Positions 1,921-19,695 of a stretch of 20,000 nt of DNA are shown one piece after another (the first letter of the stretch is position 1; the number at the start of each line of letters is the position of its first letter). This stretch comes from an uncultured virus (IMG/VR IMGVR_UViG_3300013126_000020). Taxonomy: Duplodnaviria; Heunggongvirae; Uroviricota; Caudoviricetes. The translations under genes and the position numbers were made by a program. The stretch lies in IMG/VR virus record IMGVR_UViG_3300013126_000020; one strand, given 5' to 3'. The notes beneath the pieces are model-generated. The model had not been told where the DNA came from and did not search any database. It saw only the letters and a program-made list of their open reading frames with translations.

Positions 1921-2811
1921 ATGCCCAAGTATCTAAGCAAGGCACAGGAAAAAACCTGGAGAAAGGCAAAGAAAGCCTTCAAGTCCCAGTCCGGTCGCAA
2001 GCCGGGGCAGAAGGATTGGCCATTGGTCATGCATATTTTCAAGAACATGAACAAAACTGCCGCGGATATAGAAGTCCAGCCTCAAGAAGGATACGTTGAA
2101 GAGGGCATCGAGCTTGCAGAAAAGGTCATGGGCTCCGGCTATTTCTCAGGAATTACAGATGTAGTTGTAGAGACGGGCCAGCCAGACCACTATGGCAAGG
2201 TCGTATCCGATAATCCAAAAAAAATATACATATCCGCAAATAGAATAAAAAGCGAGTTCTCGTCACCGCTAGACCGGGCTTTTCAAATGGCCGTGACCCT
2301 GTGTCACGAGGTTGGCCATATAAGGTCAAAGTTCCAGGGCGGCGAGGGCCCTGCTTATGCCGAGGAGCAGAAATTTGCTCACCTGTTTGGAGAGAAAATA
2401 AAGGCAAATCCAAAGGATTTTGAGAAGTTCACAAAGGCGGCCGCACGCTCAGCCGATATAGTACGCATGGCACATCTGGCAGATGCCAGTGGCCATTATG
2501 CAGCAGCGGATTTCCTTGACGCGGCGCTAATGAAAAGTGCTGCCGACCAGATTGATACCGAGCAGATAATCAACGGCGTTGGCTCTCTAATCGGCTACAT
2601 GGTCAGCAGAGTGTCTCCCGAGAAGCGGGTTAGCTTCAAGCAGAGCATAATTCGTAAAATCAGCCAAATAGGCACCGATCTGGCTCAGAAACGAAAGAAT
2701 CCGTCGGCTGGCATCGGGGCGGTATTTGGCCTACTAAAGAACCTGCTGTCAGGCCTGGATGCATCCCAGATCTCCTATATTATGGGACAGATACTGTCGA
2801 GGTATTCATGA
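1921..2811 (+). CDS. Multidomain protein: basic ChaB-like N-terminal helix pair, HExxH zincin-like domain, LD-x-x-G tag, C-terminal helical domain
   Basis: RBS AGGAG upstream. N-terminal W-x-K-A-K-K-A...W-x-L-V-x-x-I-F-K pattern. CHEVGH followed by a downstream Glu (GGEGPAYAEE). Domain names are by motif resemblance only. Confidence 0.6.
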   Translation: MPKYLSKAQEKTWRKAKKAFKSQSGRKPGQKDWPLVMHIFKNMNKTAADIEVQPQEGYVEEGIELAEKVMGSGYFSGITDVVVETGQPDHYGKVVSDNPKKIYISANRIKSEFSSPLDRAFQMAVTLCHEVGHIRSKFQGGEGPAYAEEQKFAHLFGEKIKANPKDFEKFTKAAARSADIVRMAHLADASGHYAAADFLDAALMKSAADQIDTEQIINGVGSLIGYMVSRVSPEKRVSFKQSIIRKISQIGTDLAQKRKNPSAGIGAVFGLLKNLLSGLDASQISYIMGQILSRYS

Positions 2812-3506
2812 TAAAAAACGCAGGACCGGAGCCCACCGGAATAACGGATCCATCTACTGGTAAGAAGGTTTATGTCTCTACCACGGCTCGAATTACTTTT
2901 CGCAAGCTGCACCCAGAGTGGGTAAAGGCGAAAGTAAAAAATTCTGCCCTAAATGAGGAGATTGCCAAGCAGTTTGCCGCAGCCCCTGTTCTAGAGATAT
3001 TTCTTTCAAAGAAGAACAAGAGCGAGGCCGGCGACGTCCGAGGAACTGAGTCCAGTAAGTTTGTGTGCATACATCGCAACTCCTATGTTTTCGTCATTGC
3101 GGCAAAAGGCACCCACAATCTACCTGCTCCGCCGGCCCCAAAAGAACTGCCTGCATCCATCAAGCTTGCAGAGCAAAATGTAAGGGTGGCCCAGGGCAGA
3201 GATGATTTCCTTCGAGCCCATCGCGGTTGGTTGGAAGACCACTGCTTTGACCTGTTTATTGGCCAGGCAGCACTTGACGAGAAGGGCGCTCAGATGCTGC
3301 GCGAATATGCGGAAAAAAATGGCGGCTTCAAGGCTATCAAGAATATGACTGCCGACCAGGCCCGGCAGATTGCCAGCAATCAGGCCAGTGCAATGGCGCG
3401 AACCATGCTTTCCGAGGATCAGCGTGGACAGCTTACGCGGGAGCCGGGCCTCCTAAATGATCGTCCGGGCAATCTGGCAGTCCCTTTTGCATTTCCTCTT
3501 GAGTGA
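2808..3506 (+). CDS. Hypothetical protein (232 aa)
   Basis: ATGA overlap with the upstream gene. Long ORF that fills the operon. Confidence 0.75.
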   Translation: MIKNAGPEPTGITDPSTGKKVYVSTTARITFRKLHPEWVKAKVKNSALNEEIAKQFAAAPVLEIFLSKKNKSEAGDVRGTESSKFVCIHRNSYVFVIAAKGTHNLPAPPAPKELPASIKLAEQNVRVAQGRDDFLRAHRGWLEDHCFDLFIGQAALDEKGAQMLREYAEKNGGFKAIKNMTADQARQIASNQASAMARTMLSEDQRGQLTREPGLLNDRPGNLAVPFAFPLE

Positions 3507-3518
3507 GTGGTGACCAGC

Positions 3519-4070
3519 ATGCGTAAAAACTCAAATGTGGAATTTTCAGTTCCGGTCTCAGAGGGCGAGAAGGCGCGCGCAACAGACCTCAGGGACAAGA
3601 TCAAAGAATTTTGCGAGCATGTCGAGAAGTTCAATGAGTTTTCCGAAGTCCTAACCGAATCGCTGGACCAGATAACATCTGGAGACCAGCTTATTCCGAT
3701 TGGTGCGCTTTTCAAGAAGTACCAGTACAAGCTGCGGGCACATTTCAACAACTGCGTGAAGTCTTTCTCCCTTGTTCTAGTGTCATATGGCAAGCTATAT
3801 TCTGAGTCAAGAACCGATCAGATACGAGATGTAATACTGAATACATTCTCAGAGGCCCGCACCGAATTTATAAATCTAATGACCATAATGGATGACTTTG
3901 ACGCAGAGAGCTTTGTCGCGGACGCAAAAGCATCTCAGCAACAAATCAATAATTATCTGGAAAAAGTACTGGTTAGCGCCCGCGACGAGTGGATCTCGCA
4001 CATAGACAAGAATATACTTGGAAAACTAAAACTGGCATCCGACTTCTCGCTCGTAAAGGTAACAAAATGA
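3519..4070 (+). CDS. Hypothetical alpha-helical protein (about 183 aa) upstream of the prohead protease
   Basis: ATG at 3519 preceded by GAGTGGTG (the track uses GTG 3507). Amphipathic helical composition. ATGA overlap with the next ORF. Confidence 0.75.
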   Translation: MRKNSNVEFSVPVSEGEKARATDLRDKIKEFCEHVEKFNEFSEVLTESLDQITSGDQLIPIGALFKKYQYKLRAHFNNCVKSFSLVLVSYGKLYSESRTDQIRDVILNTFSEARTEFINLMTIMDDFDAESFVADAKASQQQINNYLEKVLVSARDEWISHIDKNILGKLKLASDFSLVKVTK

Positions 4071-4219
4071 TAATTAAATACGGAACATCTGACCCCGCCA
4101 CCCTTGTAGACACGAAGAATATTCCTTCATGGCTAAGCGATAAAACGGTGCCGGTAGCCACTGGCACTGACGAGTCAGAGTCCCCTTCTGACCAGGAAGG
4201 CAGCGCGGAGGAAGAATGA
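4067..4219 (+). CDS. Small acidic-tailed protein, 50 aa (MIIKYGTSDP...GSAEEE)
   Basis: ATGA overlaps at both ends (4067-4070 and 4216-4219) and AAGGT upstream. The track's 3989 start is probably too long. Confidence 0.65.
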   Translation: MIIKYGTSDPATLVDTKNIPSWLSDKTVPVATGTDESESPSDQEGSAEEE

Positions 4220-7200
4220 GCATTATCAAGAGTGGTTTTATTGCCGGCAATTCCCTGGGAATTGTCAGCAATGCAAAGCTAAATGACGATCCGGCAGTGC
4301 ATGCTCGATTTGCTGCCGTTACCGATACTCTGCGAGCGGAGCAGAAGAAGCGGGGCGCCACTGAACTGTCGCCATACGTTGACGATTTTCTTTATGCTAG
4401 CTGCATCATGATGCATGCTGCCGAATCAGCTCTTATAAATCAGGAGACCGGAGAGGTCATTAAGACCGCTGATGGCAAGGCTGTTGCGGGTTGGTTTGAG
4501 CGCTATGATGCAGCAGACGGTCGCGAAACTGCTCGCTGGGTTAGTCCCGATGGAATTCGCCCAACGAAGAATAACAATGGAGACATCTTTCCAGAGAGCG
4601 AGCTCCTAAAGGCTTATAAAAACTGGATCGGCAAGCCGCTGTGCAAGGACCATGTGTCCAGCTCTGTTGATGGCATCCGGGGCGTAATAGTTGATACTTT
4701 TTATGACCCAAAGTTCAAGCGTGTTCATGCGCTCTTTGCACTTGACAAGAAGAATTACCCAGACCTCGCCCGCAAGGTAGAGGCCGGATACGCCACAAAC
4801 GTCTCAATGGGAACCGCCGTCGGTCGCTCGATCTGTAGCGAGTGCCAGAATGTGGCCACCGTAGCTTCTGAATTTTGCGGTCACGTAAAGGCGCGAACCC
4901 ATTACGGCGAAATAAATCTTGATCTGAATCCAATCGAGCTCAGCATTGTGGTTACAGGAGCAGATCCTCGTGCCAAGATCCGCAAGATCGTTGCCAGTCT
5001 CGATGAATATCGCGCGCAGGCAGATGCGCTGCGCAAGATTAAGGGCGTGCCGCTCGAGGTGCTTGCTGCCGTTGACAGCGAGATTGGCAGCCTGCAGGAA
5101 GATGTCACAAGAGGCATCCCGCCCGGGGACGTATCGCTTGATCGCTTGTTTGAACTGATTGGCCTTGTAGAGGCTAATGATGAAAAAACCGGCGCTCTAG
5201 GAATGGCGGCGTCGAAACTTTTCGAGTACATGAACGAGGTTGGTCTGAGCGCTATCCATTCGGCTCTCCTTACCTCAGGTGACGATAAGAGTGAAGAACT
5301 CTTTAAGGCCTTGTCAAGGATAAAAAATCTTTCTGACTCCGAGGATATGGTCAAGGAGGCATCCAAGGCAATAGGCAGGCTCACCGAACTTGCGCTTGGT
5401 GTATCTGACAGTGTCACTAGTATGCCCCCTTCTTCCGCGACTGGATCGTCTCCGCTGGGCGATGACGCCCGGTCCGGAACAGGGACCAGAGGGCCCATGA
5501 CTGGCGATCCGGCTGGCACAGCCAGCTCAGGCACAGGGATTGATCCGTTTGGGCGGAACAGTACGTCTGGTGGACACGGATCTCCTCCAGAGGGCGATTT
5601 GTTTGGGCTAGCATCCGTATATAGGGACGTTCCGTTGAAAAAAGGTGCAGCCGAGTACAAAAAAGACTCTGATGCCATTTCTGAAAGAATAACATCTATT
5701 AAAAACAGTTTGGATAGTTTGAAATCGTGTCTCCCGACCCAGAAGGCGGGAGTGGGAACAGGAGATATTATGACGTTTGATGAACTACGGAAGCGTGCTA
5801 ATCTGCGTAAGAAGGCTTACATGCAGGGCACAGAAGAGCCAAAGGCTTATGCCCCCATGGGCGATCCAGATCTACGCGAGGGCGATCACCACCTCCACGG
5901 CGAGGAGCTCGACACTTCCGTAGCTAATCCAGATCAGAAGGTAAAGGAGATGCTTCACCGCGCATCGCTGGACGAGCGTCGCGCTGCCCGCGCAGAGAAG
6001 CTTCGTGCCATTTCCGCTGAGCTAAAGGCCGTGCCAATGCAGGGCAACAAGGCAGTCGTCGTTGACACCACCAAGGGTTCCGGCAAAGTTGTTCAGATGG
6101 CCGATGATCACTCTGATGACGAAGGTCAGGACGCTGATGACAAGGATCTGATGAAGGCCGAGGCCGCTCTCCTGCGCCGTCTCGAGATCCTCAAGGAAGC
6201 TGCCAAGAAGAAGGGCAAGAAGGCCGAGAAGAAGGACTCGGAAGATGAGAAGAAGGAGCCCAAGGCAACAAAGGGCATGAAAGGCATGAAGGAAGAGCAT
6301 GATGCCAAGGCCGCAAAGGGCGCGAAGCCCATGAAGAAGAAGGCATATCCTCAGGGCACCGAAGAGCCAAAGGCTTACGCCCCCATGGGCGACCCGGATC
6401 TCCGCGACGGCGATCATCACCTCCACGGTGAGGAGCTCGATACCAAGGTCAGCAACCCTGATCAGAAGGTAAAGGAGCTCATTCAGCGCGCCGGCCTCAA
6501 GGCTCGTCTGACGAAGTCTGCCAATGTTGAGCGCTCACGCTGGTCGGTTCTTGCCGGCGACAAGGAAGTCTTCAGCGTAACCGCTGGGGATGCGTACAAC
6601 GTTCACCTCAATAAGCAGAGCGACGTTGCCGGCAAGACCTGGGGAGAGCTATTTGTATCGCCAGAGTACGGCAAGCAGCTCATGGCTCAGATTCGTGCAG
6701 GCAATATTTCCAAGCTCGCGGCCGAGCTCGATGCAGCCAAGGAGTCAGCTGCCGATGCTCCGATGCCAGCTCCGCCGGCTGATGCTGGCATGGCTGCGCC
6801 TCCTGCTCCGGCTCCAGCTCCAATGGTTGAGCCAGCTCCAGAGCCAGCTCCTGGTAACGAGGCCGATGACATGAAGGATCGCGTCATGGGCGCTCTTGAG
6901 AAGCTCGAAGGCTGCGTTGCTGACCTCAAGGCCGCAGTCCTTGGTGACGACGCCGGCGTTAGCGATGTTGACGTAGAGGCGCCAATGGCTGCCACTGCCT
7001 CACTGCAGCGCGGGATGTTCGAGGCTCACGCTTCGCTAAACTCACTCGCCAGCGAGCTTCGCTTCCTAGTCCGCGATGCCGACCTGGCTGATCCAAGCGT
7101 TCGCCTCGCCGCTCGCGCTGCGATTCGCGACAGCCACCTGGCCGTAATCGAGGCAAATGAGCGCATTGCTGCGTATCAAGATGCCTGCGCCGAGGACGCC

Positions 7201-8136
7201 GCCATGGCTCTTGATGACGAGGAGCTTGATCAGGTAGCTGAAGAGGTTGAGAGCGCCATCGATGAGCACATCGAAGGCGACCCATCTCACGATGACCTGG
7301 AGCAGGCCCTAAACGACCTTCGCGAAGAGCTCAAGGCGCTCGAGGATAAGGTCGAGGATGTCGCGGAGTTGGCAGAAGAGAAGGCCGAGGATGAGGAGGA
7401 CAAGGACGAGGAGGCCGATGCCATGGATGACATGTCCAAGCGTGCCGCCATGCGCCAGCAGCTCGTTGCTCGCGCCGCGAAGATGGACATGGTCAGCTCC
7501 GACCCGATGCTCAACGTTCACGGCAAGGGCGAAGGCAAGCTCGACTTCGGCATGAAGACGCAAGGCGATGCCGACTCGGACGTCCAGAGCGTATTCGAGG
7601 CCCAGGAAATGGCGATGAAGACCATGGAAGGTGTCAAGAAGGCTGCTGCCGGAATTGCTACCGCCGTACGCCAGGGTACGATCAAGGAGTCGCAGCTCGA
7701 CGCCCTTGTAGCCGTGGCTGCCGTCGATGCCGAAGCAGTCAAGTACTACCGCGAGTACTTCGGCAAGACCGACAGCGAGTTCGCCAAGGGCCTTGTTTCT
7801 GAGTTCAAGAAGTCAGCTAGCTCGAACGAGGATATTGGCTTCCGCTACAAGCGCGCTTACGCGGTTGCTATCGACGCCCAGGCTCGCGGCCTCATCAGCC
7901 AGGGTCGTGCCGCTCTCGATGAGTGCGCGGAGACCCTTGCTACCGGCAGCGATGCTAACTTTGACAGCTTCAAGCGCATGGTTGGCAACGTTAAGCCACA
8001 GGCCCGCACCGCCGGCATCGTCCCACAGATGGGCGTAGTTGATGGCGGAGAGTCGAACACCCGCACTGCCTCCGACAAGGGCAGTGTTGATGTCCGCGAC
8101 TGGCGCAGCCTCGGCAAGGCTCTGTTCGACATCTGA
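4216..8136 (+). CDS. Prohead (capsid maturation) protease fused to a long scaffold/core protein, 1306 aa
   Basis: RBS GGAGG. The N-terminal about 260 aa carry HK97-gp4/assemblin-type motifs: NGD.F...EL, KDH (H146), VSMG (S197), IELS.V..GADP.A.I (E241), plus a CxxC-x10-CxH insert. The remainder is a charged, Ala-rich, coiled-coil/low-complexity scaffold-like sequence. Followed by a strong terminator. Confidence 0.85.
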   Translation: MSIIKSGFIAGNSLGIVSNAKLNDDPAVHARFAAVTDTLRAEQKKRGATELSPYVDDFLYASCIMMHAAESALINQETGEVIKTADGKAVAGWFERYDAADGRETARWVSPDGIRPTKNNNGDIFPESELLKAYKNWIGKPLCKDHVSSSVDGIRGVIVDTFYDPKFKRVHALFALDKKNYPDLARKVEAGYATNVSMGTAVGRSICSECQNVATVASEFCGHVKARTHYGEINLDLNPIELSIVVTGADPRAKIRKIVASLDEYRAQADALRKIKGVPLEVLAAVDSEIGSLQEDVTRGIPPGDVSLDRLFELIGLVEANDEKTGALGMAASKLFEYMNEVGLSAIHSALLTSGDDKSEELFKALSRIKNLSDSEDMVKEASKAIGRLTELALGVSDSVTSMPPSSATGSSPLGDDARSGTGTRGPMTGDPAGTASSGTGIDPFGRNSTSGGHGSPPEGDLFGLASVYRDVPLKKGAAEYKKDSDAISERITSIKNSLDSLKSCLPTQKAGVGTGDIMTFDELRKRANLRKKAYMQGTEEPKAYAPMGDPDLREGDHHLHGEELDTSVANPDQKVKEMLHRASLDERRAARAEKLRAISAELKAVPMQGNKAVVVDTTKGSGKVVQMADDHSDDEGQDADDKDLMKAEAALLRRLEILKEAAKKKGKKAEKKDSEDEKKEPKATKGMKGMKEEHDAKAAKGAKPMKKKAYPQGTEEPKAYAPMGDPDLRDGDHHLHGEELDTKVSNPDQKVKELIQRAGLKARLTKSANVERSRWSVLAGDKEVFSVTAGDAYNVHLNKQSDVAGKTWGELFVSPEYGKQLMAQIRAGNISKLAAELDAAKESAADAPMPAPPADAGMAAPPAPAPAPMVEPAPEPAPGNEADDMKDRVMGALEKLEGCVADLKAAVLGDDAGVSDVDVEAPMAATASLQRGMFEAHASLNSLASELRFLVRDADLADPSVRLAARAAIRDSHLAVIEANERIAAYQDACAEDAAMALDDEELDQVAEEVESAIDEHIEGDPSHDDLEQALNDLREELKALEDKVEDVAELAEEKAEDEEDKDEEADAMDDMSKRAAMRQQLVARAAKMDMVSSDPMLNVHGKGEGKLDFGMKTQGDADSDVQSVFEAQEMAMKTMEGVKKAAAGIATAVRQGTIKESQLDALVAVAAVDAEAVKYYREYFGKTDSEFAKGLVSEFKKSASSNEDIGFRYKRAYAVAIDAQARGLISQGRAALDECAETLATGSDANFDSFKRMVGNVKPQARTAGIVPQMGVVDGGESNTRTASDKGSVDVRDWRSLGKALFDI
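5770..8136 (+). CDS. Nested in-frame scaffold protein (788 aa) from an internal start
   Basis: AGGAG-ATATT-ATG at 5760-5772, in frame with 4216. AT-rich CTATTAAAA at 5696. Codon usage changes abruptly at this point (AAG/GAG/CTC/GCC dominate downstream; AAA/ATA/AGG are common just upstream). Confidence 0.65.
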   Translation: MTFDELRKRANLRKKAYMQGTEEPKAYAPMGDPDLREGDHHLHGEELDTSVANPDQKVKEMLHRASLDERRAARAEKLRAISAELKAVPMQGNKAVVVDTTKGSGKVVQMADDHSDDEGQDADDKDLMKAEAALLRRLEILKEAAKKKGKKAEKKDSEDEKKEPKATKGMKGMKEEHDAKAAKGAKPMKKKAYPQGTEEPKAYAPMGDPDLRDGDHHLHGEELDTKVSNPDQKVKELIQRAGLKARLTKSANVERSRWSVLAGDKEVFSVTAGDAYNVHLNKQSDVAGKTWGELFVSPEYGKQLMAQIRAGNISKLAAELDAAKESAADAPMPAPPADAGMAAPPAPAPAPMVEPAPEPAPGNEADDMKDRVMGALEKLEGCVADLKAAVLGDDAGVSDVDVEAPMAATASLQRGMFEAHASLNSLASELRFLVRDADLADPSVRLAARAAIRDSHLAVIEANERIAAYQDACAEDAAMALDDEELDQVAEEVESAIDEHIEGDPSHDDLEQALNDLREELKALEDKVEDVAELAEEKAEDEEDKDEEADAMDDMSKRAAMRQQLVARAAKMDMVSSDPMLNVHGKGEGKLDFGMKTQGDADSDVQSVFEAQEMAMKTMEGVKKAAAGIATAVRQGTIKESQLDALVAVAAVDAEAVKYYREYFGKTDSEFAKGLVSEFKKSASSNEDIGFRYKRAYAVAIDAQARGLISQGRAALDECAETLATGSDANFDSFKRMVGNVKPQARTAGIVPQMGVVDGGESNTRTASDKGSVDVRDWRSLGKALFDI
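5809..6492 (+). repeat. Two-copy 156-bp / 52-aa direct repeat (5809-5964 and 6337-6492) in the scaffold
   Basis: KKAYMQGTEEPKAYAPMGDPDLREGDHHLHGEELDTSVANPDQKVKEMLHRA vs KKAYPQGTEEPKAYAPMGDPDLRDGDHHLHGEELDTKVSNPDQKVKELIQRA: 45/52 identical by manual alignment, with many synonymous differences. Confidence 0.97.
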
Positions 8137-8157
8137 GCGAGAGCCGAAGCCAAAGAG

Positions 8158-8191
8158 AACCCCGCCGCAACCCGGCGGGGTTTTCCGTTTT
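8158..8191 (+). terminator. Intrinsic terminator after protease/scaffold
   Basis: Stem AACCCCGCCG / loop CAACC / CGGCGGGGTT followed by TTCCGTTTT. Confidence 0.88.
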
Positions 8192-8441: not shown

Positions 8442-8637
8442 CATTGCAGACGAAATTGCAGCCGGCATGCAGCAGGCGATCAAAGAGAACTCACCAGCAC
8501 CAGAAGCTGGCTACTTCTCTGGCATTGCGCAGCAGCTCGCCGGCACTGCGAGCGAGCTTGATCAGGCCGGCAGCCCACTTGCTGGGAGGGTTGATGCGCT
8601 CCTCAACAACATGGTAAGCGTGCTAGGAGAAGACTGA
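8428..8637 (+). CDS. Small protein (69 aa) consisting mainly of an IADEIA N-terminal helix and an LD-x-x-G tag
   Basis: GAGGAAGG before ATG 8428. TGATG coupling to the next gene. Confidence 0.7.
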   Translation: MATIDIADEIAAGMQQAIKENSPAPEAGYFSGIAQQLAGTASELDQAGSPLAGRVDALLNNMVSVLGED

Positions 8638-9344: not shown

Positions 9345-9351
9345 GGTTGAT

Positions 9352-9966
9352 ATGAATAAGAAATTGTCCCTGTTTGCAAGCATGTTTGAGGCCGATACGG
9401 GCATGGATATTCGTGACGAGTTTGTGTCTGCTTGGGCAGACGCACTCACGCAAAAGAATAACCAGCGCAACCGCAAATTTGTTGCAACAGATGTGGATAG
9501 CTGGCTCAAGACCATGCACGAGGAAATAGCCCAGTGCGATGAGTCGGCAACCGTGCGTGTATGGCTCGATGAGCTAAATGATCTTTTTTGTGTTTCGGTT
9601 GTTGATGCGTCGGGCTGCTCCGAGTTCTGCGTTGCCTCGCCACGCAATCCCAAGACGGAGACAGAGAAGCTCATTCTCGCCGTAATTAATGGCGGCCCGG
9701 AGGCAGAAGAGGCTTTCCGTGGTGCAGTGTTGAAGCTAAAGGGCGACAGCCCAGCTGAAACTGTTTCAGATACGAGAGAGAAGCGACTGGCGGATTCTGT
9801 CGTTGTTGTTGATGATGATGCGGATGATGATATGAGCGATGATGAGCTGGATGAGCTAGCGGACAAGTTGGATAAAACTGCCTCGCTGCTAGCTAATAAT
9901 CAATCTGCAGCGTATATGGTCGAATTAGCAGCCTCTCGTCTTCGAGAGATCAAAGCAGGTGAGTGA
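9352..9966 (+). CDS. Hypothetical acidic protein (204 aa)
   Basis: GAGGT RBS before ATG 9352 (the track uses TTG 9325). Asp-rich stretch near the C-terminus. Confidence 0.75.
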   Translation: MNKKLSLFASMFEADTGMDIRDEFVSAWADALTQKNNQRNRKFVATDVDSWLKTMHEEIAQCDESATVRVWLDELNDLFCVSVVDASGCSEFCVASPRNPKTETEKLILAVINGGPEAEEAFRGAVLKLKGDSPAETVSDTREKRLADSVVVVDDDADDDMSDDELDELADKLDKTASLLANNQSAAYMVELAASRLREIKAGE

Positions 9967-10355
9967 TGTCTAAGTTTGTGGATGTAGACGGTATACTGGC
10001 AGAAGTTCAAAAGAAGATGGCTGGTCAGACCACTATGCCAAAGAGCGTTTTCCGACAGGAAGAGGCCCGCGCAGATGTGGATATCCAGTCAGAGCTAAAC
10101 AAGCGTGCCGAGGCCTACTTCAGCGACATGCTTGATGATGTTCACAAGAAGTCGGTAAAGCTCGAGGGTATTGATGCTACGGTAATGACTGCCCAGGATC
10201 GCCAGGCTGTAGCCATGAAGATGCTTGACGCCGGCAAGCGCAAGAAGCTTGCTGCGGTTGCCGACCAGCTGCGAGTGGTAGCCGATCAGGCCGACGCCTC
10301 CGGACTTTTTAAGCAGGCCGCCTCGCTCCGCGAAGCTGCTGCAAAGCTTTCTTGA
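9963..10355 (+). CDS. Hypothetical probable internal head protein (about 130 aa) with the H..V..Q module and LD-x-x-G tag
   Basis: Overlaps the upstream stop (start GTG 9963 or ATG 9966). Shares segments with the scaffold C-terminal region and with other ORFs in the window. Confidence 0.75.
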   Translation: MMSKFVDVDGILAEVQKKMAGQTTMPKSVFRQEEARADVDIQSELNKRAEAYFSDMLDDVHKKSVKLEGIDATVMTAQDRQAVAMKMLDAGKRKKLAAVADQLRVVADQADASGLFKQAASLREAAAKLS

Positions 10356-10368: not shown

Positions 10369-11121
10369 ATGAGCATCAGGAAAAAGAAGGCCGAAGCTAT
10401 TATCGGCGGACTCATGGTGGACCTGGCCGCCAGCGGGGCTTTTGACGCCCTTGCCATTGTACGCCATGCTAGCAGGCGTACCGGCACCGGGTCCACAGCT
10501 TTTGTTGTTGCGCCAGATGACCCCGCATGGGCCGACCTTTTTCGCGAGCTGAGCGTTGTCAAGAACACAGTTCCGATGCTGTCAGGAGCCGCAGAGAGAA
10601 ACGCGATCAGGCATCTTGAGTACGCAATTAAAAACCGCACAGCCGCTGTTCCCGCCCTGATAGAAGGCCTTGATCGGGCCATGGATAAAAATGCTGCCAA
10701 CTACGACGATATTCAAGTGGCCAAGGACGCCATTGCCAAGATGAAAATTGCCGCCAAGAGGATTGGCGGCCCGGCAATGTCACAGGATGGCGGCGGTGCT
10801 GGCGCGGCAGAAAAGGCATTTGACGAGTACATAACAAAGGGCGCTAAAGAGCTTGAAGCCTTTTTTGCCAAGTATCAGATAGAGGATGATCCTAAGGGTG
10901 AATACTGGAGTGAGCCACACTTCAATATTGCCAAGAGCCTTCTGCTAGATGATTTAAAAGTCCAGAGGCTTGTGTCTCACTACAATAAGAAAGACGATGC
11001 CAAGGCCAAGCTCATTGCCCGACCAGACTTTCCACAGGGAGCTTTTGAGCTGTATAAGCACGTTTCAGCCCAGATAAAAAAAGCTTCATCTGAACTAGAT
11101 AAACTCCCCTCGCGTATATAA
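10369..11121 (+). CDS. Hypothetical protein (250 aa)
   Basis: AGGAG RBS. Fills the operon. Confidence 0.8.
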   Translation: MSIRKKKAEAIIGGLMVDLAASGAFDALAIVRHASRRTGTGSTAFVVAPDDPAWADLFRELSVVKNTVPMLSGAAERNAIRHLEYAIKNRTAAVPALIEGLDRAMDKNAANYDDIQVAKDAIAKMKIAAKRIGGPAMSQDGGGAGAAEKAFDEYITKGAKELEAFFAKYQIEDDPKGEYWSEPHFNIAKSLLLDDLKVQRLVSHYNKKDDAKAKLIARPDFPQGAFELYKHVSAQIKKASSELDKLPSRI

Positions 11122-12300: not shown

Positions 12301-12334
12301 GGCGTAATTTTACTTGCAGCTTGGTAGAGGAAAG

Positions 12335-13429: not shown

Positions 13430-13464
13430 AGATATACTCTACAAAGGCTAGTGAAGAGGTACAA

Positions 13465-15174
13465 ATGACGATTGCCGATGAAATTGCAAAAGAGTTTGCC
13501 AAAAATCTGGCAGATAAGCGAGCCGCAGCGCGCCAGCGGCTCGTTGCCGCTGCCGCCGACACAGAGAAGGCAATCCGTGAAAAGCGCCCGCGCAAAAGCG
13601 ATGAAAAATCAATCATAGAGGAGGCCCACCCGGGCGAGGTTTTCGTTGCAGAGTCCGACGGCCTAGGGGGCATGGTTGGAAATCCAGAGCAGGTTCATGA
13701 GCAGATTCTCAATGCGCTGAACCGCCGTCCATCCGCCTTCCCCTATCAGGGTCTTGTTGCTAACGCAATGCTGGACTTCGAGAAGACTGCTGAGACGCTC
13801 GAGTCGCACGACCTACATGACGAAGCCGATGCTGTGCGAAAAATCGCGCAGGATTTGCTTGCGGTGTTGCAAAGGCGAGCGCAACTAGGCTCCACGACTC
13901 CGGGAGGAGTTACAGAGCCCGAGATTCTTGATCCAGATCCCGATCAGACGCAGTCATCAAAGATACACAAGGCACCTGATATACAGGAAGCCGAATTAGT
14001 ATCGGGGGAGGGTCGGACGACAAGTCAAACGTCGACCAAAGCCACATCTCGCGACAATAGCGGCGTCGTATCCAAAAGTATCGAACAAACATCAAAAAAT
14101 GCAAAAAAGGCGGGCGGCGCCCTTAGTAAGATAAAGGGATTTGGAGGAAAAATTCTGGGCCCAATAGGACTGGTGATATCTGCGTGGGACATCATAGACT
14201 CCGCCAGGAGTGGTGACTGGGCCTCCATCTGGACCACTGCCGGTGGCGCAGCAATTGGTGCGGCTGCGGCTGCGGCGGGCGTAACTGCGGCACCGGCACT
14301 AATTGCCGCCGGCGTAGGCACTGCCGTGGCAGATGGGATTAGCGCAGCCTTGACTGCCACTGCTCAGGATGGGATAGGCGTAGATCTAGCCGAGCTTGCA
14401 GCGGACATTGAATCAGAAGTTGCCGATGATTCTTACGACCCTGCCGCTTACACAGATCCGGTTAAAAAGGAGAAGGCAGAAGTTGCTCGCAAGGCTCTGG
14501 AGGCCATGCGCGAGCGGATAAACAGCATATTGCTAGCCAGGAAGACATTGGAGCGCGAGGCCGGAAAGGGAGAGCAGATGGATCCCGGCACTGTAGGAGT
14601 TGCTGTCGCCAGTATCGCCGAGAACAACAGGGCACTGGGAGAGGCATTTGCGCAATTCGAGAAGGCGGGCAGCGAACTTGACCTGTCTTTCCTTCGTGAC
14701 ACACTTGGCTTTGGATTTCCGAAGATCAAGAATCGCATTTCAGATGTTAATGAATCAGTTTCAGAGTTTGAAAATGCGATGGAGGAGCTCTACACCAAGA
14801 TCAAACCTCAGGTCGACACTATTCGCAGCCAACTAGAGGACCAGGAAAGGCGCGCATCACAGTTGATGAAGGATATTTCATCTGGAGCTGCCACTGGGTA
14901 CGGGGTAAGGACCGAGCTCGGTCTTCCTACAAAGCTAAAGAGCGACGTAGACAACCCTGATCACGTAAAGGAAGTCCAGGGTTTTCTGGGAGTGCGAGAG
15001 ACCGGCAAGTGGGATGATACGACGATGGACAAGATTCGCAAGATACGCAACCGCTGGATTGGTTTTCACATCGATATGGCCAAGCACGTCACAGAGGACA
15101 TTCTTAAGGCCTCTACTAGGAAAGAGCTGGAGGATCTTGAGCAACTTTGGCAGAACAGGTACGCAGGCAACTGA
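13465..15174 (+). CDS. 569-aa multidomain protein: IADEIA N-terminus, AHP module, LD-x-x-G-like tag, Gly/Ala-rich hydrophobic hairpin, coiled coil, C-terminal PGBD-like segment; candidate ejection protein
   Basis: GAGGT RBS. Hydrophobic stretch ILGPIGLVISAW...TAGGAAIGAAAAAAGVTAAPALIAAGVGTAV. C-terminal 'VKEVQGFLGVRETGKWDDTT' resembles a PG-binding helix-loop. Confidence 0.7.
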   Translation: MTIADEIAKEFAKNLADKRAAARQRLVAAAADTEKAIREKRPRKSDEKSIIEEAHPGEVFVAESDGLGGMVGNPEQVHEQILNALNRRPSAFPYQGLVANAMLDFEKTAETLESHDLHDEADAVRKIAQDLLAVLQRRAQLGSTTPGGVTEPEILDPDPDQTQSSKIHKAPDIQEAELVSGEGRTTSQTSTKATSRDNSGVVSKSIEQTSKNAKKAGGALSKIKGFGGKILGPIGLVISAWDIIDSARSGDWASIWTTAGGAAIGAAAAAAGVTAAPALIAAGVGTAVADGISAALTATAQDGIGVDLAELAADIESEVADDSYDPAAYTDPVKKEKAEVARKALEAMRERINSILLARKTLEREAGKGEQMDPGTVGVAVASIAENNRALGEAFAQFEKAGSELDLSFLRDTLGFGFPKIKNRISDVNESVSEFENAMEELYTKIKPQVDTIRSQLEDQERRASQLMKDISSGAATGYGVRTELGLPTKLKSDVDNPDHVKEVQGFLGVRETGKWDDTTMDKIRKIRNRWIGFHIDMAKHVTEDILKASTRKELEDLEQLWQNRYAGN

Positions 15175-15299
15175 GGGAATGTCGGCAGCCACTGCATCAC
15201 ATTTTTTCATCTGACAACTAATAAAGAGTGTAATATGTGATGTTTTAGGGGTCAAGACGCAGTCTGGCCACTCCAAACTAAATAAGTGAGGTAATTACA

Positions 15300-15974
15300 A
15301 TGGCTCTATATCCTGTTCAGCCCGGCATCCAGCCGCTTGGCCTTTTTGATGTTCTTGACACCGAGCTCGCCGCCCTAAAGGGTGGTGAGGTCATGACCCT
15401 CGGCACCGCTCCCGTGGTCAACACCAGCACCGAGACCGCCGCTCCCGACGTTCTCGACGGCTACCACCTTAACGCGGCAGCCACCCGCCCCGTTGCGCAG
15501 CTCGCTGCGTCCGGCGCGGCGTTCGTTGCCCTTGCCGACGAGGGCACCGGCCCCGACTACTTCACCATGCTCGGCACGGTCGTCGGCGGCAAGGCCGGCC
15601 TCGTCGTTAGCGCTGGCGCCGTACTCGGCCCACACACCGCGACTGCCTCAGGCAAGGTTACCCTCTGGGACAAGCCCGGTCTCTATGAGGTTACCCTTGA
15701 CTCGATGGCCGGCGACTTTGTCAGCTCGCTCACCAGCAGCGGCCTCACCCCCGGTGTCGTCGTCGGCTTCGGCAGCGGCGCAGACAAGGGCAAGCTTGCT
15801 CACAATGGCTGCGCGAACAAGGTTGCCAGCTCAGGCTGCGCGATCTTTGTCGAGTTCGCTCACTCGCAGAGCCTTGTCACCACCCCCGCCTACCTGACCG
15901 GCGCGACCCAGACGTTTGATCGCGTCAAGGTCATGTTCCTCGGTTCAGCTGGCGCCGGCAAGGCCCTGACCTGA
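15300..15974 (+). CDS. Probable major head decoration/cement protein (224 aa)
   Basis: GAGGT RBS. Immediately upstream of the MCP. Gly/Ala/Thr/Val-rich. Same strong C-ending codon bias as the MCP. Has its own terminator. Confidence 0.65.
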   Translation: MALYPVQPGIQPLGLFDVLDTELAALKGGEVMTLGTAPVVNTSTETAAPDVLDGYHLNAAATRPVAQLAASGAAFVALADEGTGPDYFTMLGTVVGGKAGLVVSAGAVLGPHTATASGKVTLWDKPGLYEVTLDSMAGDFVSSLTSSGLTPGVVVGFGSGADKGKLAHNGCANKVASSGCAIFVEFAHSQSLVTTPAYLTGATQTFDRVKVMFLGSAGAGKALT

Positions 15975-15995
15975 TAGCAACCTAGGAGTTGCCTG

Positions 15996-16026
15996 AAGAG
16001 ACCGCTTCGGCGGTCTTTTCTTTTTT
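15996..16026 (+). terminator. Intrinsic terminator with a C(UUCG)G tetraloop
   Basis: AAGAGACCGC-TTCG-GCGGTCTTTT followed by CTTTTTT. Confidence 0.92.
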
Positions 16027-16029
16027 GCA

Positions 16030-16099
16030 CTATTAATTCTGCTAGCCCTTATCATACGCAGCCTATTAATTCTGTAGGTGTTTAGCGTAATTAATTTTG
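16030..16099 (+). promoter_or_regulatory. Triplicated ATTAATT motif upstream of the MCP (candidate tandem late promoters or operator sites)
   Basis: CTATTAATTCTG exactly at 16030-16041 and 16063-16074, plus a 9/12 match, TAATTAATTTTG, at 16088-16099. Lies between a terminator and the MCP RBS. Confidence 0.6.
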
Positions 16100-16158
16100 G
16101 TGACTACGTGTCCCCAAAGTGCAAGTAAGAGTAAGTTAAGTTCACTTCGGAGAAAACA

Positions 16159-17163
16159 ATGTCAAATCTTTTTGATAACTCAGGCGAGCTCGGTGGTCTT
16201 ACCACCCGCGACGCGCTGAAGAGCCTCGTCCGCATTGCCAAGGTCCTCGAGGAGGGTATGCCCTCCAACGCCGTTGCCGCTGGCCGTCCTTCGACCACCG
16301 AGTCACAGCGCGACGAGCTCGTTCGTCAGGCCATCCTCGACCAGGGCGGCAAGGTTGCTCTTGCTCAGGCCATGGCGCTCCCAATCCGCCGCAACCTTGA
16401 TTACTCGGGCGTTGCTCGCCGCGGCCTCGTCGTTGACGAGCTCGCCACCGGCGTTCTCCCCCTCTATGAGCGCGACATCGACGTTGCCGCTTTCGTAATC
16501 TCGGCGAACGGCGCCGTTCCAGAGAGCCCTGTCCGTGGCGACCGCGTATTCGTCCCAGATTTCGACATCGCCTGCCACCCACTCGTCCGCATCCGCGAGG
16601 CCCGTCAGCGCCGCTTCAATGTCATCGAGCGTACGGTCCAGAAGGCCAAGCAGGAGATCGCTGCCACTGAGGACGCGAACTTCTTCGCCGCCCTCGACTT
16701 CGCTAGCGACGCCGCCCTCGGTGGTGAGAACACCGCTCAGGTTCTCGGCGCCCGCATCTCACGCGCCGACATGGTCGAGATCAAGTCAGAAGTTGATCAG
16801 TGGGACCTGCTCACCAGCAAGTTCTTCATGAACATCCGCGACTTCCAGGACCTCCTCCTCTGGACGTCACAGGGTGGTACCTCGGCTGCTGAAGTCGACC
16901 CCGTCACGCACCGCGAGATCCTCCAGACCGGCCTCTACGCCAAGCTCTTCACCGCCGACATCATCGTCAGCAAGCTTGTTCCGTTCGGCAGCGTCTTCGG
17001 TTGCGCTGAGCCCGACATGGTCGGCGTCATGCCAATCCGCCAGAACGTCGAAGTCGTACCAAACGACAAGATGGATCGCCTCAGCCTCGGCTGGACGGTA
17101 TTCGAGACCATCGGTATCGGCATTGTCAACGCCCGCGGCGTCGCCGTAGGCCGCAAGTCCTGA
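16159..17163 (+). CDS. Major capsid protein (HK97 fold), 334 aa
   Basis: GGAG RBS. Size and position after the protease/scaffold and decoration genes. 'LAQAM..PIRR.LDY.GVARR..VVD.L..G..P.YERD' N-arm/E-loop-type segment, backbone helix 'KAKQEIAATEDANFFAALD', and C-terminal 'GW..FE.IG.GI.N.RGVA' strand typical of HK97-fold MCPs. Extreme codon bias. Flanked by terminators. Confidence 0.9.
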   Translation: MSNLFDNSGELGGLTTRDALKSLVRIAKVLEEGMPSNAVAAGRPSTTESQRDELVRQAILDQGGKVALAQAMALPIRRNLDYSGVARRGLVVDELATGVLPLYERDIDVAAFVISANGAVPESPVRGDRVFVPDFDIACHPLVRIREARQRRFNVIERTVQKAKQEIAATEDANFFAALDFASDAALGGENTAQVLGARISRADMVEIKSEVDQWDLLTSKFFMNIRDFQDLLLWTSQGGTSAAEVDPVTHREILQTGLYAKLFTADIIVSKLVPFGSVFGCAEPDMVGVMPIRQNVEVVPNDKMDRLSLGWTVFETIGIGIVNARGVAVGRKS

Positions 17164-17180
17164 GCCTAGCTCTGGTCTGA

Positions 17181-17214
17181 AAGAGGGGTCGCCGCAGGGC
17201 GACCCCTTTTTATT
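17181..17214 (+). terminator. Intrinsic terminator after the MCP
   Basis: AGGGGTCGCC-GCAG-GGCGACCCCT followed by TTTTATT. Confidence 0.92.
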
Positions 17215-17325
17215 GCGCCGTCTGATGCTGTTAGCTACAGGCATCGACCGAATGAAGCAGAGCATATGGCTTTGTTCGGTAAGATGTTGCGCAGGCAGCG
17301 AGCAGTGTGATCAGGCAGGTGAGAT

Positions 17326-17682
17326 GTGAGCTTATTCGACTTACTATTCCGCAAGAGCTGTGCAGTGGAGTCTCACCCTGCCGATGGGTACCTTGCACAA
17401 CCGCCCGGGCACGATACGATTGTGCGCCCAGGCACATATCGCTTTAATAATCGCCAGGTAGATATTCTCGGTTTTCTACCAAATAGCAAAATGAGCGCCA
17501 CTCTATTTCTGTGTCATGCGGGCTCAGGAAGCTGCTCAGAGTGGGGCACCTACGAGTTTTCTAGGGTGTCGCATGACAAAACCCAGGAGATATGGGAGGC
17601 TATTGTTGGTAAGTCAGGCATAGTTATTCATGTAACAAAACACCACGGTGAAGTAACACTAAAACTAGAGGTTGATAGATGA
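17326..17682 (+). CDS. Hypothetical protein (118 aa)
   Basis: AGGTGAG before the GTG start. ATGA overlap with thyA. Confidence 0.6.
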   Translation: MSLFDLLFRKSCAVESHPADGYLAQPPGHDTIVRPGTYRFNNRQVDILGFLPNSKMSATLFLCHAGSGSCSEWGTYEFSRVSHDKTQEIWEAIVGKSGIVIHVTKHHGEVTLKLEVDR

Positions 17683-18536
17683 CTGAGACTTCCTATCTAA
17701 ATATAATGCGCCAGATCCTTGATGAGGGCATCGACGTTGAAAATGATCGCACAGGAGTCGGGACCCGAGGCATCTTTGGCGCTCAGATGGTGTTTGACAT
17801 GGATGACGGATTTCCTCTATTGACCACGCGTCGTATTGCGTTTCGTATTGCATTCGAAGAGATGATGTGGTTTCTCCGGGGACAGACAGACTCTAAGATC
17901 CTTGAGCAGAAAAAAATCAACATTTGGAGGGGCAATACTACCCGTGAATTCCTGGACGCAAAAGGACTGACCCATCTCCCAGAAGGTGATGCAGGAAAGA
18001 ACTACAGCTGGCAGCTGCGTAACTTTAATGGCAGCCACGCTGGTTCTGGCTATGATCAGCTGGCCGCAATTGTTTCTGGAATAAAGACAGACCCATCCAG
18101 CCGCCGCCATTTTGTTAGCTACTGGAATCCGCAGCAGGTGCTGACAGAAGCAGCTCTGCCGCCATGCCATGTAAGCTGGGCAGTACAGATTGCTGGAGGC
18201 AGGCTAAATCTATCCTTCCAGATGCGGTCTAATGACTTCTATCTAGGAAATCCGACAAATATCGCAGGATATGGATTCCTGCTCCACGCCCTCGCCAATT
18301 TGACTGGCCATCGTCCCGGTCGACTTGTATTCCAGGGTTCTGATGTGCATCTGTACAAGAACCAGCTGGATAACGCAAGGATCCAGATTACCCGAGAGCC
18401 ACTGCCGCTGCCGCAATTTCGCATAAATAAACAGCTGTCTACTCTAGATGACCTGCTCGCTCTGCAGTATTTGGACGTAGAGATGGTCGGATATGCGCAC
18501 CATCCAGATTTACCAAAGGTTGAGATGGCCGTATGA
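17679..18536 (+). CDS. thyA: Thymidylate synthase (ThyA type)
   Basis: DRTGVGT, FPLLTT, SRR, catalytic ALPPCH, RSND.YLG.P.N...Y, D.HLY.N, C-terminal MAV. GAGGT RBS. Confidence 0.97.
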   Translation: MTETSYLNIMRQILDEGIDVENDRTGVGTRGIFGAQMVFDMDDGFPLLTTRRIAFRIAFEEMMWFLRGQTDSKILEQKKINIWRGNTTREFLDAKGLTHLPEGDAGKNYSWQLRNFNGSHAGSGYDQLAAIVSGIKTDPSSRRHFVSYWNPQQVLTEAALPPCHVSWAVQIAGGRLNLSFQMRSNDFYLGNPTNIAGYGFLLHALANLTGHRPGRLVFQGSDVHLYKNQLDNARIQITREPLPLPQFRINKQLSTLDDLLALQYLDVEMVGYAHHPDLPKVEMAV

Positions 18537-18985
18537 ACAAATTGATCGGAATAGCTGCAGTGTCTGAGAACGGCGTAATTGGTCGCGGCAACTCTCTGCC
18601 CTGGCACCTGCCAGAGGATTTAGCGTGGTTCAAGTCCGTAACCTTGGGCCATGCACTGGTAATGGGTCGCGCCACTTATAACTCTATAGGTCGCCCACTT
18701 CCTGGCAGGAAAACATATATTCTGACGAGATCTCCTGCCGGTCCCTCGGAGATCAGAAGTATTTCAGAGGCGCATTCAGATTCGGGCTTTGTCTTTTTAT
18801 GCGGTGGCTCGGAAGTATATGCTCAGTTTCTATCTGATTGTGATGAGCTTCTAATTACTCATGTTAAACAACAAGTTGACGGCGATAAATATTTTCCTTA
18901 CTTTCAGCATATGTTTTATGCGACAGAAACGCTGCGGTCAAACGAAGAGTATGACATCGTCAGATATGCAAGGATTCCACGATGA
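18533..18985 (+). CDS. folA: Dihydrofolate reductase
   Basis: IAAVSENGVIG..N.LPW.LPEDL..FK..T.G...VMGR.T..SIGRPLPGR, GG..VY, GD.YFP. ATGA-coupled to thyA. Confidence 0.96.
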   Translation: MNKLIGIAAVSENGVIGRGNSLPWHLPEDLAWFKSVTLGHALVMGRATYNSIGRPLPGRKTYILTRSPAGPSEIRSISEAHSDSGFVFLCGGSEVYAQFLSDCDELLITHVKQQVDGDKYFPYFQHMFYATETLRSNEEYDIVRYARIPR

Positions 18986-19359
18986 AACATTCGAGTGCGG
19001 CCTGGCGCTGGGGCTCCGCAGAGCACCGAGCAGAAGCTGTAGCGTCCACGCTTCAGTGTTTTTTCAAGAAGAGTGCCTATGAGCCAGACTTGCAAGGACT
19101 GGTCAGCATGGTGGCCGCGATTGCAGACAGGGACTTTGATGACGAATGCGTCATAATTGGAAATCTTGCAGGTTTTATTTCTTTCGAGATAAATGCGGCC
19201 AGTCCCTATGTCGGTGGCGGTGAATTTATGGATTGGGTGATGAGCAGTGCTGTCAGGTCTGAGGAGCCAGCCTCTCTCGACCTTTCTCTAAAGATAGCGG
19301 GACGCAACTGCGTCCCGCTGATGGTCTGCTCTATGCGCAAGAAGGTTTCAGGGCTCTAG
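18982..19359 (+). CDS. Hypothetical protein (125 aa)
   Basis: ATGA overlap with DHFR and AAGGA upstream. Overlaps the convergent gene by 12 nt. Confidence 0.55.
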   Translation: MKHSSAAWRWGSAEHRAEAVASTLQCFFKKSAYEPDLQGLVSMVAAIADRDFDDECVIIGNLAGFISFEINAASPYVGGGEFMDWVMSSAVRSEEPASLDLSLKIAGRNCVPLMVCSMRKKVSGL

Positions 19360-19695
19360 CCCATCTTCGAACGCCTCGACAACGCCGGCATTGTGCTCTT
19401 TCTTCAGCTCTTCGATCTTGCTAGCGGCCGCACTGCGAGCCGCTTTTACGTTTTTGCCGACAAACCTTATCGCAGGGCCCATCGCGTTCGGATTCTCCAG
19501 CTCGTGGACGGTTAGTTCGCAAACAACCATGCCCTTTTCCCGCTTAAATGTAACATGGATTGACTTTTTCACCTCTTGCTCGGCGAGGATCAATAGGTTT
19601 GCGGCCGCATCCATATGTGCTGCGGCGCGGAACATGCCAGCCTGGTCCAGCTGGTTCGCAAGCGCGTAGATATTCTTTATAATGGTTTTGTTCAT
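19348..19695 (-). CDS. Hypothetical protein (115 aa) with an N-terminal LD-x-x-G tag and a small beta-beta-(beta)-alpha domain
   Basis: GGAG RBS on the - strand. N-terminus IKNIYALANQLDQAGMFRAAAHMDAAA matches the tag found in the head-module genes. Confidence 0.8.
   Translation of the reverse strand: MNKTIIKNIYALANQLDQAGMFRAAAHMDAAANLLILAEQEVKKSIHVTFKREKGMVVCELTVHELENPNAMGPAIRFVGKNVKAARSAAASKIEELKKEHNAGVVEAFEDGLEP

Follow-up and report, generated by a model that had tools for sequence, protein, structure and literature searches.

The DNA analysed here is a 20,000-nucleotide stretch from an uncultured virus (IMG/VR record IMGVR_UViG_3300013126_000020), referred to below as the window, and its gene content and family searches identify it as the head-morphogenesis module of an uncultured jumbo phage. 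Otherwise dissimilar proteins encoded in it share a short peptide, here termed the tag, which is portable between unrelated proteins, restricted to one phage clade and concentrated in the head module. Because the tag is found on many unrelated proteins and is concentrated in capsid-building genes, it probably marks the proteins that join the capsid core. The fuller reading, to which we give about half of our belief, is that the tag, a predicted helical hairpin, is a portable docking module of the prohead core that has been borrowed by accessory proteins.

An earlier, sequence-only reading of the window had quoted seven peptide strings as copies of such a tag, and all seven occur where they were said to lie (numbered 1 to 7 in Table 1). 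The window by itself, however, is insufficient proof of a motif, because shuffled sequences attain the same pairwise scores: the best ungapped 22-mer pair, formed by copies 3 and 5, scores 45. Of 60 globally and 60 locally shuffled proteomes, 20% and 40%, respectively, have a top pair that scores at least as high. The window proteome is moreover rich in alanine (12.1%), and the possibility had to be considered that the copies are simply look-alike Ala-rich amphipathic helices, although the evidence from other genomes leaves this explanation with practically no probability.

Beyond the window, the motif is real and recurrent. A profile scan of relatives had been proposed as a check, and it was carried out with a profile, A1, composed of copies 1, 2, 3 and 5 and their orthologues. 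Searched against G002, a 371,675-bp IMG/VR relative with direct terminal repeats and 100% estimated completeness, A1 recovered three training loci and also ten untrained places at per-genome E values from 8.9e-7 to 0.024, seven of them right after the start methionine, two C-terminal and one internal, the last preceded by a second, degenerate copy. A profile of 21 rows, A2, then gave 16 matches in G002 and five in G001, the near-identical 24-kb record that lies nearest to the window; one of the five is in a 177-aa open reading frame (ORF) about 8.4 kb upstream of the window start. Among the 527 ORFs of G002, called with a simple longest-ORF caller, two untrained A2 matches scored 20.5 and 15.3 bits, while the best of 20 locally shuffled proteomes reached 12.0 bits and reversed sequences 3.5. 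With decoy proteomes at no more than 8.2 bits in a further profile described below, the concern that random helices would score as well as members was not borne out.

The tag is also widespread in sequence libraries. Against 1.84 billion representative proteins, A2 matched 352 at E ≤ 1e-3, 11 of these even at E ≤ 1e-10 and many with several copies, and a strict degenerate DNA pattern found 48 loci in IMG/VR encoding near-identical peptides that read M-[IL]-K-[ED]-L-[IV]-K-LANxLDxKGLxKEADxLDxhIxK. Forty of these loci are distinct, with the tag N-terminal in 26, C-terminal in five, internal in four and unclear in five. The untrained copies in G002, the low controls, the 352 library proteins and the strict-pattern loci together rule out chance resemblance. 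A tblastn search with a two-tag protein found no match among 50,697 GenBank phage records; the homologues of P0013 comprise 21 proteins, none informatively named; and the nearest clusters in the ESM Atlas, at 0.81, are viral hypothetical proteins, which is a lead only.

The recurring motif, first described as about 25 residues long, thus stands, but the conserved unit is longer, at about 32 residues, with the canonical form M-h-K-E-L-I-K-LANxLDxKGLxKEADxLDxhIKKhA. Conservation starts after the methionine and ends at D-[SA]-h-[IL]-[KR]-K-h-A. The K/R-x-A motif that had been noted behind many copies is therefore the conserved end of the second helix (helix B), whereas the QRRA of copy 4 lies outside the tag. 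Residues A8, G15 and A20 vary hardly or not at all, conservation extends to D12 and D24, and the surface positions N9, D12, E19/D21 and D24 are maintained across hundreds of proteins. In the AlphaFold model of the G002 protein G2_210599, residues 38-58 and 61-76 form two helices (pLDDT 83-91), after which come a low-confidence linker of 23 residues and a small, separate beta domain (pLDDT 92-94); in the model of g1921 from the window, helices 172-190 and 193-208 flank a turn at G191 (pLDDT about 60). The tag is accordingly predicted to be an autonomously folding hairpin of helix, glycine turn and helix. No Pfam family (135 carriers scanned) or PHROG family (90 carriers) covers it, and a tag profile searched against 177,635 PDB sequences returned only four rows, with E 0.33-7 and no phage protein among them.

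The proteins that carry the tag are for the most part unrelated to one another. When 14 G002 carriers and 22 window proteins were compared by BLAST, all matches other than those between true orthologues were confined to the tag (23-74 aa), in keeping with the proposal of a portable tag on unrelated proteins. All three placements that had been claimed, N-terminal, internal and C-terminal, are seen among carriers. In the best 150 of the 352 library matches, 235 tags with 15 bits or more are spread over 147 proteins (64 with one, 78 with two and five with three); this list is enriched in multi-tag proteins because their tag scores sum. Terminal tags number 136 of the 235, against 46 expected under uniform placement; 99 tags are internal and 37 C-terminal. 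Single-tag proteins in the same list carry it N-terminally in 43 cases, C-terminally in six and internally in 15. Where the tag is C-terminal, the protein ends 5-9 residues past the motif, and tags are otherwise solitary or lie tens to hundreds of residues apart. Nearly all carriers are without a family match. A few contain ferritin-like, Dps-like, AP2 or DnaJ domains or zinc ribbons (Pfam, PHROG), weak LysM and PG_binding_3 matches fall below the curated cut-offs, some carriers have glycine-zipper membrane segments, and the window carrier g1921 has an HExxH motif. The membrane segments, the ferritin-like, Dps-like, AP2, LysM and PG_binding_3 matches and the HExxH protein are carrier types that fit internal or ejected proteins.

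Within the window, profiles that were each built from the orthologues of one copy find the other copies as the window's best matches at 4-7 bits, which 0.5-5% of 200 decoy proteomes reach; copies 3 and 5 are reciprocal best matches (reached by 0.5-1.5% of decoys), and the orthologue profile of copy 4 finds nothing in the window. The orthologues retain A-x-x-[LA]-[DE]-x-x-G-...-A, the remaining positions being variable. A 10-tag profile, made from ten tags of non-head genes in G002, was scored against 200 decoy proteomes, of which the best reached 8.2 bits. Copies 1, 5, 3 and 2, in descending order, exceeded all 200 decoys (Table 1), in a test that is partly circular because its ten tags came from the A1 search. 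With a 15-tag profile, drawn from 15 tags of three other phages, the scores of copies 1 and 5 were each matched by 1% of decoys, and copies 2, 3 and 4 were missed (1.6, 0.7 and 0.0 bits). On these sequence comparisons, copies 1, 2, 3 and 5 are assigned to the tag family.

Conservation among orthologues follows the same lines. In copy 1, A184, D188, G191, A196 and D200 are invariant in eight orthologues, one of them from a phage with a 55%-identical capsid protein, and the tag residues of g1921 stay invariant across orthologues that are otherwise 20% identical. The aspartate and glycine of copy 2 are retained in eight distinct orthologues, and the gene that follows the protease-scaffold gene, equivalent to that of copy 2, encodes a tag or tag-like motif in G003, G007, G013, G015 and G017. 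Copy 5 lies on the opposite strand, outside the head module and past the thymidylate synthase and DHFR genes.

Copy 4 fails every profile test. Yet a 176-aa protein of G017 that matches residues 35-132 of g13465 (E 7e-10) has an 11.6-bit tag at residues 108-127, the position of copy 4, and in G013 and G015 the proteins encoded directly upstream of the decoration and capsid genes contain tags that score 22.2 bits (residues 130-156) and 17.9 bits (residues 118-139), respectively. As a scoring member of the family copy 4 therefore does not stand; given the scored tags at its position in three other phages, we read it as a decayed positional homologue. The two strings that had been listed as weaker copies found no support. 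Copy 6 appears in no profile listing, and its orthologues in L008 and L009 have lost the pattern. The best score of copy 7, an offset match of 3.6 bits to the 15-tag profile, is also attained by 5% of decoys, and the 10-tag profile gives it 0.7 bits; the stretch is conserved in close orthologues, but without the turn glycine.

Table 1. Tag copies and other features; positions are nucleotides of the window unless another record is named, and paired scores are those of the 10-tag and 15-tag profiles
Feature	Position	Strand	Protein and residues	Remarks
Copy 1, quoted string	2458-2529	+	g1921-2811, aa 180-203	
Copy 1, tag, internal	2449..2538	+	g1921-2811, aa 177-206	23.2 / 9.6 bits
Copy 2, quoted string	8536-8604	+	g8416-8637, aa 41-63	
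Copy 2, tag, C-terminal	8524..8613	+	g8416-8637 (73 aa), aa 37-66	11.5 bits
Copy 3, quoted string	10269-10340	+	g9963-10355, aa 103-126	
Copy 3, tag, C-terminal	10260..10349	+	g9963-10355 (130 aa), aa 100-129	12.9 bits
Copy 4, quoted string	13777-13848	+	g13465-15174, aa 105-128	
Copy 4, putative degenerate tag	13768..13857	+	g13465-15174, aa 102-131	Turn Gly replaced by Asp; no profile support
Copy 5, quoted string	19600-19671	-	g19348-19695, aa 9-32	
Copy 5, tag, N-terminal	19591..19680	-	g19348-19695, aa 6-35	16.6 / 9.4 bits; most canonical in the window
Copy 6, quoted string		+	g10369-11121, aa 14-34	
Copy 6, claimed weak copy, unsupported	10408..10470	+	g10369-11121, N-terminus	Absent from every profile's listed matches
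Copy 7, quoted string		+	g9325-9966, aa 182-203	
Copy 7, claimed weak copy, unsupported	9868..9933	+	g9325-9966, C-terminus	At most 3.6 bits
Portal protein, C-terminal part	2..826	+		phrog_16240, E 4.5e-16; head module begins here in the window
M23 peptidase	1246-1848	+		Between portal and protease genes; no tag
Prohead-protease domain fused to long scaffold-like region	4216..8136	+	g4216, 1306 aa	phrog_18299 head maturation protease, aa 119-227, E 4e-12
Major capsid protein	16159..17163	+		phrog_2522, E 2.5e-61; defines the tag-carrying clade
Genes with the ~55-residue domain	G002 210599-211129 (L052:10599-11129); L113:2933-3421			

The distribution of the tag among phages follows that of the window's capsid protein. 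Five tag-bearing records contain 11, 19, 2, 4 and 14 tags. The window's capsid family, at 54-59% identity or better, is present in seven of 11 tag-bearing records, including all three that are at least 90% complete, and the four without it are fragments (26-67% complete). Bacillus phage G, whose gp27 is 44% identical to the window's capsid protein, has no tags by a profile search that does match other genomes. On these sequences the tag is restricted to one jumbo-phage clade, in which the capsid protein is about 55-100% identical to that of the window; at E ≤ 1e-20, 1533 of the 8000 candidates scored are relatives of this protein.

The tie to head morphogenesis that the sequence-only reading had drawn is borne out by genome position. 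Ten records were picked by their capsid gene alone and searched with A2, and nine of them contain tags, 41 in total. Upstream of the capsid gene and on its strand, 23 of the 41 lie within 22 kb and 27 within 30 kb, against 1.95 and 2.5 expected, although the two limits were chosen after the first batch had been seen and the tags of one protein are not independent. The layout is likewise conserved: a tag in the protein right after the protease-scaffold, a 928-1216-aa protein with two tags, a tag in a 425-435-aa protein directly before the decoration and capsid genes, and small proteins with N-terminal tags upstream of the protease. These head-module tags hold syntenic positions across capsid proteins that are only 55-60% identical, and copies 1-4 of the window fall in the head module. 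That the tag also occurs outside the head operon, as had been claimed, is seen in the copy 5 gene and in other genomes, in which small genes with N-terminal tags form co-oriented arrays well away from the head module.

If the hairpin is a docking module of the prohead core, it would work as follows. The scaffold-like and internal proteins encoded between the protease-scaffold and capsid genes, which carry it internally or C-terminally, sometimes twice, would be parts of the core itself. Some 10-20 more proteins per genome, small, fast-evolving and mutually unrelated, encoded elsewhere and often in arrays, bear the hairpin right after the start methionine, followed by a flexible linker. A8 is expected to pair with A20 inside the hairpin, which would leave exposed a hydrophobic stripe together with N9, D12, E19/D21 and D24. 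This exposed face may dock on one common phage-encoded surface, provided by the scaffold, by the capsid protein on its inner face, by the portal or by another tag, and the tag bearer would thereby be drawn into the assembling core and so end up inside the capsid. Loading of cargo into the prohead by the tag is plausible, and the 1306-aa protease-scaffold fusion is a candidate receptor. Of the docking-tag proposal as first made, the portable, multi-position and head-linked character of the tag has stood, and its removal by a protease has not found support.

Several observations weigh against this reading, besides the limits chosen in hindsight. In the first capsid-selected batch the 22-kb stretch before the capsid gene accounts for 20 of 28 tags, but in the second, which consists entirely of fragments, for only three of 13, and one record there is without tags. 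In G002 only four of 16 tags are within 30 kb upstream of the capsid gene, most being outside the head module among genes for HNH endonucleases, sigma-like proteins, RNA ligases and tRNA enzymes. A promoter-like motif, TAAAGCCGG-N5-6-CCGATCCTG (described below), occurs 0.5-4.4 kb upstream of six G002 tag genes on the plus strand, which argues against a purely late virion role. Pfam searches of 76 array and head proteins name no carrier as a virion protein, and the receptor, encapsidation and any later processing are matters that we infer. Co-folding of a capsid alignment (A3) with a tag alignment (A4) gave a score of 0.00, without controls, and counts neither way.

The location of the G002 tags raises the possibility that the tag docks on a hub other than the capsid, such as a phage chaperone, a replication or assembly compartment or a host factor, with head proteins as one class of client. 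The six genes just mentioned, downstream of a motif limited to the small-ORF region, would suit such a hub, as would a Cpn60 gene near the tag arrays of G007, an ArdC-like gene in G004 and the DnaJ or AP2 domains of some carriers. We nevertheless regard it as unlikely, given the strong enrichment in the head module in records picked regardless of tags and the syntenic tag positions there; moreover, none of the ten non-head G002 carriers matches a family of replication, transcription or nucleotide metabolism. There might equally be no common receptor, the tag being a self-associating or stabilising helical unit, similar to a single tetratricopeptide repeat (TPR), that has spread by duplication and domain shuffling and that oligomerises or links its carriers. 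The spacing of A8, G15 and A20 and the hydrophobic positions 4, 7 and 11 do agree with positions of the TPR signature, the faint PDB look-alikes include a designed TPR (E 7), and proteins with two or three tags on long linkers, such as the big head-module protein with its two, would be suited to forming networks. Against this, the surface residues N9, D12, E19/D21 and D24 are conserved in hundreds of proteins and therefore argue for a specific shared partner rather than generic packing, and no TPR is among the five Pfam families matched by 24 tags at E ≤ 10, so that we judge this explanation to be quite unlikely. It overlaps with the docking-module reading if the network that it forms is the prohead core.

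The sequence-only reading had itself favoured a cleavable capsid-addressing signal in the style of the T4 internal proteins, cut off by the maturation protease. The N-terminal position after the methionine, which dominates the single-tag proteins, the protease-scaffold gene in the same module and the linker rich in Glu, Asp, Gly and Pro behind the tag are all in line with such a signal, and the arrays in which unrelated tag-bearing genes are grouped are reminiscent of the T4 internal-protein loci. Conservation stops, however, after K-K-h-A, and behind the tag even the most frequent residue at +8 and +9, Glu, accounts for only 19%; the head-module tags are mostly internal; 83 of the 147 top library proteins have two or three tags; and C-terminal tags all but end their proteins. 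Removal by the maturation protease is therefore doubtful, and we hold a cleavable signal to be decidedly improbable. An extension of the docking-module reading is put forward only tentatively, well short of an even chance: the hairpin may be a clade-wide 'zip code' for the whole set of prohead-core proteins carried to the next cell, 10-20 per genome, with tags binding each other or the giant protease-scaffold and multi-tag proteins knitting the core together. If true, that set would include the arrays of fast-evolving, N-terminally tagged effectors, and the hairpin would be the first shared encapsidation code for giant phages.

Several known systems resemble the tag in part. It shares with the TPR a 32-34-residue helix-turn-helix in which positions 8 and 20 are small and positions 4, 7 and 11 hydrophobic; within the TPR signature 4, 7, 8, 11, 20, 24, 27 it fits the first five, with Asp at 24. 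Unlike TPRs, tag units are single or separated by long linkers and are neither stacked nor adjacent in tandem, and position 24 is a conserved Asp. The five Pfam families that matched the 24 tags have one member each, and no TPR family was found by Pfam in 135 carriers at E ≤ 1e-3. The coat-binding domain of P22-type scaffolds is a helix-loop-helix at the extreme C-terminus of an assembly protein. The tag is of similar size, AlphaFold models predict the same helix-loop-helix fold, and the C-terminal tags of g8416 and g9963 stand next to the scaffold gene; however, it is common to many proteins, its binding to the capsid is putative, and no phage scaffold appeared in the profile search of PDB sequences. 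Encapsulin cargo-loading peptides and the encapsulation peptides of microcompartments are terminal tags joined by a flexible linker to unrelated cargo, and the encapsulin shell has the HK97 fold. Ferritin-like and Dps-like carriers among the library matches add to this likeness, but these peptides are shorter, single segments, whereas the tag is a two-helix unit that also lies inside core proteins, and with the exception of the ferritin-like carriers no known encapsulin cargo family was found in the Pfam and PHROG scans.

In phage T4, according to the available passages of PMC5694885, N-terminal propeptides of 10-20 residues ensure incorporation into the head and can package foreign proteins. 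This capsid-targeting sequence (CTS), found on IPI-III and Alt, is like the tag a short leader common to unrelated proteins, some of them encoded away from the head genes, and it leads into the prohead core. The tag differs from the CTS in being a hairpin of about 32 residues that is often not a leader (the 99 internal and 37 C-terminal tags counted above) and can occur in tandem; the two have no sequence likeness, no conserved residue behind the tag points to a cleavage site, and encapsidation by it is putative. For DarB of phage P1, the available passages of PMC9024508 state that roughly the first 30 residues are enough to bring a reporter into the capsid. As far as those passages go, the DarB signal agrees with the N-terminal tags in length and position but belongs to one protein rather than to a family-wide motif, and there is no evidence that the two are homologous.

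A full-text literature search with tag peptides and capsid-targeting terms found no description of the motif. For the giant phage SPN3US, the available passages of PMC5694885 describe long, individual propeptides and mention no signal common to them. Incorporation or assembly tags shared between proteins are known as a kind, but this folded, multi-position, clade-wide version is not known. Giant phages pack many proteins into their heads, and here a single recognisable module marks head-module proteins together with many dark-matter proteins, in a clade for whose capsid family metagenomes contain over 1,500 relatives (among the 8000 scored candidates). Should the tag direct incorporation, sequence would suffice to read out which internal and ejected proteins uncultured jumbo phages have, the arrays of tagged genes would be candidate injected effectors, and the tag might be used to load foreign proteins into capsids. 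Whatever the receptor, the tag is an unannotated, widespread interaction module that deserves a family entry.

Turning to the neighbouring genes of the window, syntenic homologues of the protease-scaffold fusion, 1108-1342 aa long, are encoded in G006, G007, G013, G015 and G017. Its scaffold-like part contains a repeat of about 65 residues twice (5794-5991 and 6322-6519), with the core …KKAYxQGTEEPKAYAPMGDPDLRxGDHHLHGEELDT…. The same region includes a half-tag, ISKLAAELDAAKESAADA, at 6706-6759 (residues 831-848 of g4216), which corresponds to helix A without the glycine turn or helix B; it is kept in G002 and scores 3.4-4.5 bits only. Because the M23 peptidase gene has no match in the relatives L008 and L009 (the latter being G002) and is replaced in G002 by an unrelated 388-aa gene, its product is suggested to be a swappable internal protein that cuts cell walls. 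About ten plus-strand proteins of the window are without a family match, and the thymidylate synthase and DHFR genes lie on the plus strand. Between the window and close IMG/VR relatives the capsid protein is 99-100% identical and the neighbouring head-module proteins 26-76%, an extreme contrast in evolutionary rate within one operon.

The tag carrier g1921 contains an HExxH motif, HEVGH, at 2305-2319 (residues 129-133), which is also present in the G002 orthologue and suggests a putative zincin-like metallopeptidase. The corresponding part of the AlphaFold model has a pLDDT of about 80, and a Foldseek search with the model (overall pLDDT 61.6) returned nothing at E ≤ 0.001. The hexapeptide GYFSGI is common to g1921 (2137-2154) and g8416 (8509-8526), both of which carry tags, and the orthologues of g8416 retain it as G[YH]F[SA]G[IV].

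One family of carriers is defined by a conserved domain of about 55 residues, LSTRY[CS]PD..GVQ..R...YQ[CD]P..GK.Y…PGGS, which always occurs with one to three tags, on either side of the domain. It accounts for 17 of 290 library proteins, all 17 of them among the top 150 matches, and both G002 and G003 have a gene of this family some 5.7 kb upstream of that for terminase. A zinc-ribbon-like pattern, C-P-D-H … C-P, is retained in some members, and the domain is modelled with a pLDDT of 92-94. Foldseek with a model of such a protein returned nothing at E ≤ 0.001, with weak rows for zinc-ribbon ribosomal proteins at E > 1.

The promoter-like motif TAAAGCCGG-N5-6-CCGATCCTG has about 45 plus-strand sites in G002 (L042-L047, L060), at 2.9-115 kb and 361-371 kb and 8-120 nt before many gene starts. 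It is confined to 0-115 kb and 361-372 kb, and its full form is absent from 116-361 kb, the part with the head genes. The region with the motif contains small ORFs and genes for HNH endonucleases, RNA ligases and tRNA enzymes; it looks early or middle, and the motif probably marks one temporal class of genes. Neither strand nor the motif CTATTAA distinguishes the G002 tag genes: five of 15 lie on the minus strand (p 0.14), and CTATTAA is upstream of only one of 14 (Fisher p 0.28). A looser promoter pattern precedes four of 14 (p 0.003) but was chosen after seeing the data and is not relied on. The likeness of ribosome-binding sites between tag genes and head genes in G003 was judged by eye only. 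CTATTAA itself precedes in G002 the capsid gene, several large genes and one tag gene, G2_24783. Upstream of the window's capsid gene, two copies of CTATTAATTCTG, starting at 16030 and 16063, come after a terminator-like hairpin and its T run (15998-16026); the motif is a candidate late promoter there. CCTATTA occurs in the window at 19758-19764, 69 nt before the ATG of g19348.

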